A program made the position numbers and the translations under genes. Below are positions 60,945-64,000 of a stretch of 64,000 nt of DNA, piece by piece; position 1 is the stretch's first letter; every line of letters starts with the position of its first letter. The notes beneath the pieces were generated by a model that did no database searches, was not told where the DNA came from, and worked only from the letters and a program-made list of their open reading frames with translations. Origin of the DNA: Escherichia coli (GTDB lineage: Bacteria; Pseudomonadota; Gammaproteobacteria; Enterobacterales; Enterobacteriaceae); assembly GCF_045037415.1 (NCBI RefSeq), contig NZ_CP173438.1; one strand, written 5' to 3'.

Positions 60945-61508
60945 ATGACGAGAAAATATCTCACACAGGATGAAGTCTACAGGCTGATGGATGCAGCCCA
61001 GAGCATGTCCTTTCCTGAAAGAAATCGCTGTCTAATTATGATGGCTTTCATTCACGGTTTTAGGGCCAGTGAACTTCTTGATTTACGTTTATCCGATATT
61101 GATGCATCTGGAAAACAACTTAATATTCGGCGTATTAAAAATGGTTTCTCGACAACACATCCTCTTCTTCCTGATGAATATAATTTGATCAAGTTGTGGC
61201 TTAAGCAGAGGAAGTTAATTGAAAACGGAGTTGAAGGAGACTGGCTTTTTCTCTCCCGGAAACGCCGCCCTATCAGCAGACAACATTTTTTTTCTATCAT
61301 TCGTGAGGCTGGAAAACGTGCAGGATTAGCTGTAAAAGCACATCCTCATATGTTACGTCATGCCTGTGGTTTTGCTCTGGCTGACAATGGTGTCGATACC
61401 CGACTACTTCAGGATTATCTGGGTCATCGAAATATTCAGCATACTGTCAGATACACAGCCAGTAATGCTGCTCGTTTTAAAGGGGTGTGGAAAAAAAAGC
61501 CTCGTTAA
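60945..61508 (+). CDS. FimB/FimE-family site-specific tyrosine recombinase (187 aa)
   Basis: MTRKYLTQDEVYRLMDAAQ...FIHGFRASELLDLRLSDID...GFSTTHPLL...HPHMLRHACGFALADNGVDTRLLQDYLGHRNIQHTVRYTASNAARF aligns closely with recalled FimB sequence, including catalytic H-x-x-R and Y regions. Confidence 0.85.
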   Translation: MTRKYLTQDEVYRLMDAAQSMSFPERNRCLIMMAFIHGFRASELLDLRLSDIDASGKQLNIRRIKNGFSTTHPLLPDEYNLIKLWLKQRKLIENGVEGDWLFLSRKRRPISRQHFFSIIREAGKRAGLAVKAHPHMLRHACGFALADNGVDTRLLQDYLGHRNIQHTVRYTASNAARFKGVWKKKPR

Positions 61509-61520
61509 AACAGTACCTTC

Positions 61521-61536
61521 TGATTCAAAATGTCAG
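61521..61536. repeat. Left inverted repeat of putative invertible element (TGATTCAAAATGTCAG)
   Basis: Exact reverse complement of 61783-61798; 12 bp downstream of the recombinase stop. Confidence 0.75.
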
Positions 61537-61782
61537 ATTCCTACGTTTTCCTCAATTCTTCCATAAAAAAACAGCCCATTCAATTAAATAAAACACATAA
61601 CATGTTGATATTTCTAGCTAAAGTAAAATAACCCTATGATTTGAAATGATTAATCACAAAGGTCATACCAGTGATTAACTTTCGCCCATATCGTTAAATA
61701 ACACAAAATTAAAAACAATAAAAATCAAACAAATTAGATTTATATTCCAAGAAAATTAAATATTCAGGCTATTAAACCAAAC
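61537..61782. other. Putative invertible DNA segment (~246 bp, very AT-rich) bounded by 16-bp perfect inverted repeats
   Basis: Placement between a FimB/E-like recombinase and a LuxR-type regulator; IR boundaries; AT-rich content with promoter-like hexamers on both strands. Confidence 0.5.
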
Positions 61783-61798
61783 CTGACATTTTGAATCA
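61783..61798. repeat. Right inverted repeat (CTGACATTTTGAATCA), embedded in a 27-bp palindrome at 61782-61808
   Basis: Perfect reverse complement of the left repeat; CCTGACATTTTGA-A-TCAAAATGTCAGG palindrome read directly; 30 bp upstream of the regulator ATG. Confidence 0.75.
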
Positions 61799-61837
61799 AA
61801 ATGTCAGGTTTTGTAGCAATGGCGTGGACGAGTCTGA

Positions 61838-62632
61838 ATGAAGAAGCCTCTGGTTATTATCAGTGCCTGTCAGTTCACCAGGCTGGCACTGGAGTCTCTC
61901 ATCCCAACGGACAGGTATATCGTGCGGGTGTACAGCAACGTCACTACAGAGGTTGAATTCGTTTTAAAGACCTCCTGTGGCTACCTGTTAGCTGATATCC
62001 CTTCGCTTCCTTCGGGGGAGTTGGTTCTTCTGGCTTGTCTCGCCCGTTTGCGGAGTGATGCCGGGCAATGGCAGGTCTGCCTGACCGGTGACTCCGACTG
62101 GTTCGATAATGCTCCTGCTGCAAGTCTGTATAACGGCTTCCCACGCATCGGCACCATGCTGACAGCGAGTCGTTATCAGAATCAAATTATCCGCTGGTTA
62201 CTGCGTCCTTTGCCCGGCGATATGAGCGATTTCTGGCTCCTGACTGCACGGGAGTTGAGCGTGCTTAAGATTCTGATGCAGGGCATGAGTTTCAGTGAGA
62301 TTGCCCGTTATGAACAACGCAGTTCAAAGACCCTGCATGCGATTGCCACACGGGCTTTAATGAAACTTGGACTGAGAACACTGAGCGATTTCAGGCTGCT
62401 CTATACGGGATGCGGTGACAGCAGAGTGAAACGGAATATACGGCTACATGCAAAATATATCGGACAACATTCCGCTCATCGACTCACTCAGTATGTGCAG
62501 AACATGGTATCCGGAATCCTTTATCCAGAGAAAGTTGCCGTTGGTGAATCAATAAATTCTGACGCCATTTCCGGAAAAGTACTTTCCGGACAAAGAAAAA
62601 ATATATCTAAAAAAAGACCAGGATTGTTATGA
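61838..62632 (+). CDS. LuxR/GerE-type HTH transcriptional regulator (264 aa)
   Basis: C-terminal LTARELSVLKILMQGMSFSEIARYEQRSSKTLHAIATRALMKLGL matches the LuxR-type HTH; N-terminal domain of unclear type. Confidence 0.8.
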   Translation: MKKPLVIISACQFTRLALESLIPTDRYIVRVYSNVTTEVEFVLKTSCGYLLADIPSLPSGELVLLACLARLRSDAGQWQVCLTGDSDWFDNAPAASLYNGFPRIGTMLTASRYQNQIIRWLLRPLPGDMSDFWLLTARELSVLKILMQGMSFSEIARYEQRSSKTLHAIATRALMKLGLRTLSDFRLLYTGCGDSRVKRNIRLHAKYIGQHSAHRLTQYVQNMVSGILYPEKVAVGESINSDAISGKVLSGQRKNISKKRPGLL

Positions 62633-62735
62633 CACAGCAGCGTTGTTACTACCACCCACTGCGGCGCACACGGACTCGCTACAGTGTAGGAGCCAAAATA
62701 TTTCTACTGTTCTGGGCTGCAGGATTGGGAGGCAT

Positions 62736-62754
62736 GCTGTACAGCCTGTACAGC
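62736..62754. promoter_or_regulatory. Tandem palindromic motif GCTGTACAGC-CTGTACAGC upstream of the second regulator gene; candidate operator
   Basis: Two adjacent copies of the self-complementary octamer CTGTACAG, 32 bp upstream of the 62786 ATG. Confidence 0.3.
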
Positions 62755-62785
62755 GTGCTGGCGTACTGACATCTGTGAGGGAAGG

Positions 62786-63547
62786 ATGCGTTTCGTTCTT
62801 TTCTGTCCCTCAGGAATTGTACCAGCGCAGTTCGCAGCTCTATCAACCGGTTCTGTCGGCAATGTTACCTGCATAAGAACAGAAGAGGAGTTACGCAATA
62901 AATTGCGGCACAGGCCACAGAGTGTCGTGATATCGGCAGGGCGACCTGCCGAATGCGCTGAAATGTGGTTCCGATTTTATCTGGATCACTCATTCGTGGT
63001 GGTGTTGTGCGTCGCGCCCTTTTTTCTGCCACCGGATGTGAGTATTTCTGGCGTTCTCAAAAACCTGAGGTTACTGAAACCAGGAATGTCAGTAGAGCGT
63101 GTCATCAGTATTGCAAATGCCTCTGGTGGGTTTTCAGGACTGAAACATGCAGAAAATTTGCCAGTTATGGACTGTTACTCTGTCTTTATGAAAGAGGTGA
63201 ATAACCGCACAAAGACAATCGTCATGTCAGAACGCTTCCCGGAAAAGCAAAAGAAGGTGTTGTCGTTGCTTCTTGCCGGACACAGCTGGGAATACAGTGC
63301 GCAGTTTCTCAAAACGGGGATAAGACAGATATGGCTTGCCGAGCAGTCGCTAAAAAAGCGTTGGGGGATACCGGACAGCATGTCATTGCGGGAAGCCCTG
63401 CTGCTGAGCAGCAATAATTTTCACGGTGATGGAAATGCATTGGAAACAACGAATGCCATGACATTGCGTGAAAACGGAAATACCAACAGGTATTCCGTGG
63501 TGGTAAATGCAGGGACGCAGGCTTTATCTCTGCATAAATATAAATAA
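62786..63547 (+). CDS. Hypothetical protein, possible regulator with weak C-terminal HTH-like segment (253 aa)
   Basis: ORF with ATG and upstream GAGG(G)A; C-terminal PEKQKKVLSLLLAGHSWEYSAQFLKTGIRQIWLAEQSLKKRWGI loosely resembles a LuxR-type HTH. Confidence 0.55.
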   Translation: MRFVLFCPSGIVPAQFAALSTGSVGNVTCIRTEEELRNKLRHRPQSVVISAGRPAECAEMWFRFYLDHSFVVVLCVAPFFLPPDVSISGVLKNLRLLKPGMSVERVISIANASGGFSGLKHAENLPVMDCYSVFMKEVNNRTKTIVMSERFPEKQKKVLSLLLAGHSWEYSAQFLKTGIRQIWLAEQSLKKRWGIPDSMSLREALLLSSNNFHGDGNALETTNAMTLRENGNTNRYSVVVNAGTQALSLHKYK

Positions 63548-63588
63548 GTGGGAAATTGAAATTAGTTACCAGAATGGAGAATTTCTTC

Positions 63589-64000
63589 ATGAAAAACAGT
63601 AAGGCATTTTACCGCAGCGCATTAGCGACAGCTATTGTTATGGCTCTTTCTGCACCAGCATTCGCTGCTGATAACGCGGTATCAACTACACCGGTTACAT
63701 TGGATAAAGATAAGACAACTCTGGAACAAGATGTTGTTATTAGTGGTACTACACAGATTACAGCCGCAACAATTAATGCGAAAGATAAAGACCTTAATGT
63801 TACTTTGGGTGGTCATGATATTACCGCCACATCAACGGTAGACCAAGGTTTCGTTGAAGGTGTAAAAGTTAGCGGTGACAAAAATGTTGTGATTAATGCT
63901 ACAGGCTCCACCATCACAGCTCAAGGTGAAGGTACCTATGTCCGAACTGCAATGGTCATTGATTCAACTGGCGATGTTGTTGTTAATGGCGGTAACTTTG
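63589..64000 (+). CDS. Secreted autotransporter-like / adhesin-like protein, N-terminal 137 codons; continues past window end
   Basis: My translation from ATG 63589 (GGAGA SD 8 nt upstream): MKNSKAFYRSALATAIVMALSAPAFA|ADNAVSTTPVTLDKDKTTLEQDVVISGTTQITAATINAKDKDLNVTLGGHDITATSTVDQGFVEGVKVSGDKNVVINATGSTITAQGEGTYVRTAMVIDSTGDVVVNGGNF; signal peptide with AFA-AD cleavage site, T/V/G/N-rich repetitive passenger-like sequence. Not in ORF track (no stop). Confidence 0.55.
   Translation, partial: MKNSKAFYRSALATAIVMALSAPAFAADNAVSTTPVTLDKDKTTLEQDVVISGTTQITAATINAKDKDLNVTLGGHDITATSTVDQGFVEGVKVSGDKNVVINATGSTITAQGEGTYVRTAMVIDSTGDVVVNGGNF

Follow-up and report, generated by a model that had tools for sequence, protein, structure and literature searches.

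Among the invertible elements described in Escherichia coli, hyxS with its recombinase FimX is the closest counterpart of the locus analyzed here, which occupies positions 60945 to 64000 of a 64,000-nt stretch of E. coli DNA (contig NZ_CP173438.1, assembly GCF_045037415.1; the whole stretch is called the window in the following). The hyxS/FimX system belongs to PAI-X, the pathogenicity island of fimX and hyxRAB, in which hyxB is also known as upaB (PMC3789825). It comprises 16-bp inverted repeats that bound hyxS between fimX and hyxR (PMC6083910), and the expression of hyxR is set by bidirectional inversion of the promoter region (PMC3789825). The inversion is FimX-dependent and the orientation controls hyxR (PMC3789825; PMC6083910; PMC6458436). 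Of five Fim-type recombinases, FimX alone inverts hyxS in UTI89 and CFT073 (PMC6083910; PMC6458436), over-expression of FimX leads to hyxS inversion in both strains (PMC6458436), and FimX also acts on fimS, including in fimB-null ST131 (PMC6083910; PMC6458436). Downstream of the switch, hmpA, a nitric-oxide detoxifying gene, is repressed by HyxR, which also influences survival in macrophages; in the ST131 strain EC958, mutants in hyxR and hyxA differed in the chain length of the O-antigen and were less resistant to serum (PMC3789825). Our data indicate, with a probability of approximately 0.93, that the locus in the window is the fimX-hyxS-hyxRAB phase-variation module of PAI-X, i.e. a member of the hyxS/FimX system and not merely similar to it.

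The segment 60900-64000 is 100% identical over 3,101 bases to many annotated E. coli genomes including O25b:H4-ST131 (megablast), and the same query detected the locus in 1,921 of the 5,426 complete E. coli genomes that served for all censuses in this study. RefSeq names the genes in the identical ST131 loci ipbA ('tyrosine-type DNA invertase IpbA, also known as HbiF and FimX'), hyxR, hyxA and hyxB; they are flanked by betT-betI-betB-betA on one side and by ykgH-ykgG-ykgF-ykgE on the other, and the CFT073 reference genome displays the same arrangement of locus and neighbours. A first-pass annotation, made from the letters of the window, could not tell whether this is a named locus or a new variant. 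The BLASTn comparison it proposed settles the question, because the 100% identity to annotated ST131 loci means that the locus is already named, has been experimentally studied since 2008-2012 and is annotated gene by gene in RefSeq; it is not a new variant. The allele in the window is identical to that of ST131 genomes, and the locus is also covered in the fimB-null ST131 study that is cited in PMC6083910. Compared with hyxS/FimX of PAI-X in UTI89, CFT073 and EC958 no difference was found, the betA-side position, the 16-bp repeats and the gene order being the same. Every defining feature of the hyxS/FimX system that can be judged from the DNA is present, while the functional features are taken from published experiments. 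The elements that had been placed by the first-pass annotation were all recovered with base-exact coordinates, and the features of the locus are as follows.

60945-61508, plus strand: ipbA (= fimX = hbiF), 187-amino-acid tyrosine-type DNA invertase (RefSeq, NCBIfam, alignment to XerA/XerD)
61521-61536, no strand: IRL, the left 16-bp inverted repeat of hyxS, TGATTCAAAATGTCAG (repeat search; inversion breakpoint in L002)
61537-61782, no strand: invertible core of hyxS, 246 bp, 26% GC, in the majority orientation, probably OFF (orientation census, CFT073)
61555-61583, minus strand: best sigma-70-like element in the switch, TTGAAT-17-AAGAAT, a candidate suggested by a weight-matrix scan
61776-61814, no strand: near-perfect palindrome in which IRR overlaps a direct near-copy of IRL (19-nt arms; end point of a 271-bp deletion)
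61783-61798, no strand: IRR, the right 16-bp inverted repeat of hyxS, CTGACATTTTGAATCA (inversion breakpoint in L002)
61792-61807, direct orientation: near-copy of IRL, TGAATCAAAATGTCAG, 15/16 identical to IRL
61838-62632, plus strand: hyxR, 264-amino-acid LuxR-family regulator (RefSeq, Pfam GerE)
62786-63547, plus strand: hyxA, 253 amino acids, predicted receiver-like domain and LuxR-type helix-turn-helix (RefSeq, AlphaFold2, Foldseek)
63589-64000, plus strand: 5' end of hyxB (= upaB), autotransporter adhesin, cut by the end of the window (RefSeq of the identical locus L001)

The recombinase gene carries the first part of the argument. The ipbA open reading frame of 187 amino acids agrees with the RefSeq ipbA coordinates transferred from locus L001, and its product exceeds the curated cut-offs of the two NCBIfam subfamilies of tyrosine-type DNA invertases (NF007370, 251.6 bits with a cut-off of 221; NF007371, 233.2 bits with a cut-off of 222). 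Pfam PF00589 is recorded on IpbA homologues, and those with 60-62% identity are named FimB, in line with the initial description of the protein as a homologue of FimB/FimE. The alignment to archaeal XerA and to XerD revealed that the catalytic residues R40, K65, H135, R138 and H161 as well as the nucleophile Y170 are all present; hence, the objection that the recombinase might be catalytically dead does not apply to IpbA. Upstream of the gene, a terminator-like hairpin with a 10-bp stem followed by CTCTTTTTTT is located at 60890-60923 on the plus strand and ends 22 nt 5' of the ipbA start codon. It may either insulate ipbA from upstream transcription or be part of the ipbA leader.

The second part concerns the repeats. 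Only 12 nt separate the ipbA stop codon from IRL, which has a perfect reverse complement at 61783-61798, and the extended repeat arms reach 33 nt at 82% complementarity. The enclosed 246 bp have a GC content (guanine plus cytosine) of 26.4% versus 51.8% for the whole window, and each of the six alleles inspected has a core of 246 bp. When 61400-61900 was shuffled 500 times with the dinucleotides preserved, no shuffle contained a perfect separated inverted repeat of 16 bp; the longest such repeat measured 14 bp and appeared once. The borders that had been proposed for the AT-rich segment, between perfect repeats 12 bp past the recombinase, are therefore exact, and the repeats exceed what chance would produce.

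Third, both orientations of hyxS occur in nature, with the breakpoints at the repeats. The genomes were searched with a synthetic sequence flipped at the 16-bp repeats, including 171-172 nt of flank on each side, and with the native sequence alike. When at least 80% of the probe had to be covered, the native orientation was found in 1,780/5,426 genomes and the orientation inverted at the exact repeats in 15/5,426, so that among genomes with a retained switch approximately 99% share the orientation of the window. The locus of strain AVS0744 (L002) is colinear with the synthetic inversion across both junctions and differs from it by 3 single-nucleotide polymorphisms in 621 bases versus 174 mismatches to the native form; the inversion breakpoints at the repeats were verified in this locus and in L003. 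Nine of the 15 inverted genomes match over the full length; their hosts vary, as do their allele backgrounds (99.5% to 96.9% identity), which fits assemblies catching a switching population and not a single clone. The other six (L003 and H36-H40), mostly from dogs, share a truncated match. In the one of the six that was inspected, L003 from strain Eco_24-2013, only the last 114 nt of ipbA are left (3001-3114) beside an IS66-family insertion sequence (ISEc8), and the switch at 3127-3404 is exactly inverted relative to the window, so that this lineage appears to be naturally locked.

How the locus relates to the other described switches can be seen from what is shared and what is not. Similar to hyxS, fimS with FimB/FimE combines a small tyrosine-type DNA invertase with an adjacent AT-rich promoter element of about 300 bp between inverted repeats. 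Unlike hyxS, it has 9-bp repeats around 314 bp, possesses two dedicated recombinases and drives the structural gene fimA directly; moreover, the half-sites of fimS and hyxS are reported to align poorly, and neither FimB nor FimE inverts hyxS (PMC6083910; PMC6458436). The ipuS element of CFT073 with IpuA/IpuB-ipuR-upaE resembles the locus even in its layout of recombinase, invertible element, LuxR-type regulator and autotransporter (PMC6083910). However, it is situated on a different island, has 7-bp repeats around a 260-bp element with the left repeat inside ipuA, is inverted by four of five recombinases and is accompanied by no hyxA-like gene (PMC6083910). In its mode of action the locus is like fimS and ipuS, from which it is set apart by the length of the repeats, the specificity of the recombinase and the cargo.

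Two relatives were found outside this circle. The T1-antigen switch of Salmonella (STM0716-STM0718 upstream of the T1 glycan genes) has a recombinase, STM0716, that is 72% identical to FimX (P0052), a related repeat core, TGATTCAAAA..., with 257 nt between the arms, and a HyxA homologue downstream. All GenBank assemblies but one carry it in the OFF orientation (PMC11294581), a bias like the 99% observed for hyxS. Its cargo is a polysaccharide gene cluster and not an autotransporter, and the switch interior could not be aligned to that of hyxS. To judge from the sequences, the hyxS locus shares ancestry with this Salmonella switch. The other relative is a second Escherichia module (L012-L014, 5001-10300) with the same architecture, related repeats and likewise a palindromic right site; it encodes a recombinase 81% identical to FimX, a 242-amino-acid open reading frame, a HyxA homologue of 248 amino acids and an autotransporter of 900 amino acids. 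In contrast to hyxS, this module is found at another chromosomal site adjoining acetolactate decarboxylase/synthase-like (acetoin-pathway) genes, its switch interior is unrelated, and the repeat spacing amounts to 200 nt in L012 and 241 nt in L013.

Collectively, these results suggest that FimX (IpbA/HbiF) would recombine the two 16-bp inverted repeats and thereby flip the 246-bp AT-rich hyxS. With hyxS carrying the hyxR promoter, as published experiments indicate, cells would alternate between high and low HyxR expression, and transcription probably runs on into hyxA and hyxB/upaB. The initial picture of a FimB/FimE-like invertase beside a repeat-bounded promoter switch, which gates a LuxR-type regulator and is followed by an autotransporter, thus coincides with the published hyxS/FimX system (PMC6083910, PMC3789825, PMC6458436) and with the natural inversion at these repeats in other strains. 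Some points weigh against this reading. The experimental facts on hyxS are second-hand, taken from later papers and not from the primary work (Bateman & Seed 2012), and both orientations were demonstrated across strains, not inside the window's own strain. Furthermore, a strict consensus sigma-70 scan called no promoter in either orientation of the element, which leaves the promoter position and the OFF assignment soft. Finally, in either orientation transcripts from the switch have to cross a stable hairpin that is located ahead of hyxR and has UUUUGU behind it.

With regard to its state, the switch in the window is probably OFF, i.e. set to low hyxR expression. The CFT073 reference shares the orientation of the window, with 5/246 mismatches versus 172 for the inverted form, and CFT073 with all five recombinases deleted has been described as 'hyxS locked OFF' (PMC6083910). 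As for the location of the promoter within hyxS, we infer it from TTGAAT-17-AAGAAT on the minus strand (61583-61555), the top match of a soft weight-matrix scan. This element faces away from hyxR in the window, and inversion would turn it toward the gene. The candidate -35 hexamer and the spacer are invariant in six alleles with core differences at up to 19/246 positions; the candidate -10 hexamer reads AAAAAT in one of the six. A strict terminator scan of the switch called nothing in either orientation. The transfer of ON and OFF by homology was given up for the Salmonella T1 switch, since the interiors are not alignable (best E value, the expectation value, 0.014 over 17 nt); the interior of the second Escherichia module is likewise not alignable with hyxS.

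The proteins encoded behind the switch agree with those expected, at different levels of certainty. HyxR contains the Pfam GerE/LuxR helix-turn-helix (PF00196) at residues 135-183 with an E value of 2e-6, which corroborates the LuxR-type regulator predicted after the switch. No receiver domain was detected in HyxR, as Pfam gave no Response_reg match and NCBIfam matched the helix-turn-helix only, far below the cut-offs. The sole PDB match of the HyxR helix-turn-helix (residues 136-182; E up to 0.01) is the LuxR-type helix-turn-helix of PdeL (YahA) with an E value of 2.8e-4; in CFT073, pdeL is encoded beyond the adjacent bet operon. An unannotated 46-codon open reading frame with a hydrophobic C-terminal half (62629-62769, plus strand) extends over the hyxR stop codon (ATGA). 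It was rejected as a gene: it is open in six loci, but most substitutions change an amino acid, which gives no clear sign of coding.

The second regulator-like reading frame, hyxA, is supported at the level of its predicted fold. Searched singly, as an alignment or member by member, HyxA yielded no Pfam or NCBIfam match, and BLASTP detected no similarity between HyxA and HyxR (E 0.30). The family is very small, with 28 representatives among 1.84 billion clustered proteins; two putative distant relatives (P0029, P0031) were dropped as fragmentary gene calls in poorly called contigs. The AlphaFold2 model obtained from a 14-sequence alignment (mean predicted local distance difference test score, pLDDT, 77; predicted template modelling score, pTM, 0.72) consists of an alternating beta/alpha domain with five strands and, behind it, a four-helix LuxR-type DNA-binding domain, with the elements in the expected order. 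The best Foldseek matches in the PDB are the full-length response regulators RcsB, FixJ, StyR and VraR, with E values of about 2e-5 to 1e-4 over approximately 205-225 alignment columns. In this predicted fold, HyxA has no phospho-acceptor aspartate, strand 3 (residues 47-51, VVISA) being followed by GRP, and no acidic pair, strand 1 (FVLF) being followed by CPSG. HyxA is hence predicted to act like a LuxR-type DNA-binding protein with an atypical receiver and a fold of the NarL/FixJ type, but it is no canonical member of that family.

Regarding hyxB, the first 137 codons are inside the window, where an autotransporter-like N-terminus had been noticed at its end. The full-length gene of the identical locus L001 encodes 763 amino acids and confirms this impression. 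Its passenger matches the PDB entry 6BEA, 'Autotransporter protein UpaB', with an E value of 2.5e-256, its C-terminus matches the BrkA beta-domain, i.e. the translocator, with 7e-23, and the full-length gene thereby displays the type Va features of UpaB (signal peptide, beta-helix passenger and C-terminal beta-barrel).

One question is how the switch reaches the adhesin. The first-pass annotation had proposed a two-tier cascade that ends in a surface adhesin. The part in which the switch gates the regulator hyxR agrees with the published work, whereas the cascade itself is established neither by the literature searched nor by the sequence. In such a cascade the switch would turn on HyxR only, and HyxR, perhaps together with HyxA, would activate a separate upaB promoter, making the adhesin indirectly phase-variable. 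The LuxR-type helix-turn-helix of HyxR, the response regulator-like fold predicted for HyxA, the 153-nt gap between hyxR and hyxA and the reported action of HyxR on the unlinked hmpA (PMC3789825) are in favor of this scenario. However, HyxR control of upaB was not found in the literature searched, only 41 nt separate hyxA from hyxB, and a terminator scan called no site in either the hyxR-hyxA or the hyxA-hyxB gap. Moreover, hyxRAB has been described as an operon behind the switch, and the inverted promoter of the Salmonella module drives genes past the two regulator-like reading frames STM0717 and STM0718, which are themselves unneeded for product synthesis (PMC11294581). In view of the small gaps, the lack of a called terminator, the operon description and the Salmonella case, direct co-transcription of hyxRAB is at least as likely as the two-tier cascade, which we regard as unlikely, though by no means far-fetched.

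A particular feature of the locus is its right-hand site. The palindrome at 61776-61814 has 19-nt arms with one mismatch (95% complementarity). IRL matches IRR there in inverted orientation at 16/16 positions and TGAATCAAAATGTCAG in direct orientation at 15/16, the latter differing at one central base only; because the right site is near-palindromic, IRL has a direct as well as an inverted partner. As RNA the palindrome folds with -25.8 kcal/mol (z -6.8) in the orientation of the window and with -17.6 kcal/mol when inverted, and UUUUGU follows. We take it for a symmetric core site of the recombinase and not for a terminator, because a palindrome at the right site recurs in the second Escherichia module, in which the switch interior is unrelated; a role in transcription is also possible.

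The direct partner coincides with the end point of a deletion. A 271-bp gap was first seen in one genome (H84), in which the left flank is joined directly to the direct IRL copy, and a stringent 100-nt junction probe found this precise deletion of the switch in 88/5,426 complete genomes, many of them from poultry. The junctions (positions 1622-1721 in L004 and 1201-1300 in L015-L017) are of two types: L004 and L017 have TGAATCA, whereas L015 (clone D i14) and L016 (O84:H7) have TGATTCA. Given these two types and the four or more combinations of IpbA, HyxR and HyxA alleles that carry the deletion, it arose more than once. The flanks of L017 are identical to the window along 570 nt and 700 nt. 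In the deletion genomes ipbA and hyxR are intact, and hyxR starts 58 nt past the ipbA stop codon. The mixed central base fits strand exchange across a one-base heterology, and slippage between direct repeats of 12-16 nt gives both junctions too. It might tentatively be suggested, with the odds somewhat against it, that the switch has a third, irreversible state, in which direct recombination by FimX or slippage excises the 271 bp of hyxS precisely, and the near-palindromic right-hand site may explain why the deletion recurs. No earlier description of the deletion and of the variants locked by insertion sequences was found in the literature searched, the primary hyxS and PAI-X papers being outside that search.

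Two further explanations question whether hyxS still acts as a promoter switch in this lineage. First, the switch might be a frozen relic without a useful inversion rate, with FimX now serving mainly as a fimS recombinase. The 99% bias to one orientation, the decay elsewhere (the ipbA frameshift and internal hyxR stop in O157, the ipbA cut by an insertion sequence, the switch deletion) and the emphasis of the literature on FimX at fimS, including in fimB-null ST131 (PMC6083910; PMC6458436), would be compatible with this. It is quite improbable, however, given that the window has two perfect repeats and an intact recombinase, that inverted assemblies with an intact ipbA occur on several allele backgrounds, that FimX over-expression inverts hyxS in UTI89 and CFT073 (PMC6458436), and that the active Salmonella switch exhibits a strong OFF bias in assemblies too (PMC11294581).

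Second, the flip might act on termination instead of moving a promoter, so that hyxR would be expressed by read-through from fimX or from further upstream, and inversion would alter the hairpin at the right end (a 19-bp versus a 16-bp stem) or an internal terminator. The folding energies of -25.8 versus -17.6 kcal/mol ahead of UUUUGU, the element's lack of a strict consensus promoter and the 88 genomes that keep intact ipbA and hyxR genes 58 nt apart without any switch could be explained in this way. On the other hand, inversion of the hyxR promoter region has been published (PMC3789825), the hairpin is there in both orientations and was not called by the terminator scan, and a symmetric core site of the recombinase, which recurs in the second Escherichia module, is the simpler account of the palindrome. 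We therefore consider control by termination highly improbable and retain the inversion of a promoter by FimX. Finally, the reading as a transposon or defence system is unsupported, as Rfam (E up to 1) and PADLOC returned nothing in 59800-64000 or for the three proteins.

Some observations concern the surroundings of the locus and its variants. Between betA and ipbA, at 60184-60900, about 700 bp with 24-29% GC bear no annotated gene in ST131 genomes, while a hypothetical gene of 135 nt on the minus strand is annotated in the equivalent region of two other genomes. In several ST131 genomes that are otherwise 100% identical, the 3.1-kb stretch is split in two by IS1, an IS5-like (ISEc35) or an IS3-like (ISEc52) element. 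The O157 strain 644-PT8 (L005, 2157-5621) has a decayed locus with a frameshifted ipbA, an internal stop in hyxR and a hyxA split by IS1203, in which the 16-bp repeats and the 246-bp core are intact despite the decayed genes.

The locus has a value for calibration, since a real phase-variation module was recovered from raw sequence with base-exact coordinates. For the field of Fim-type recombinases, small additions of possible interest are the orientations counted in 5,426 genomes, the precise excision that hyxS has repeatedly undergone at a palindromic site and the response regulator-like fold predicted for the orphan protein HyxA. If the third state of the switch is real, excision would turn a reversible epigenetic switch into a fixed state of hyxRAB expression.

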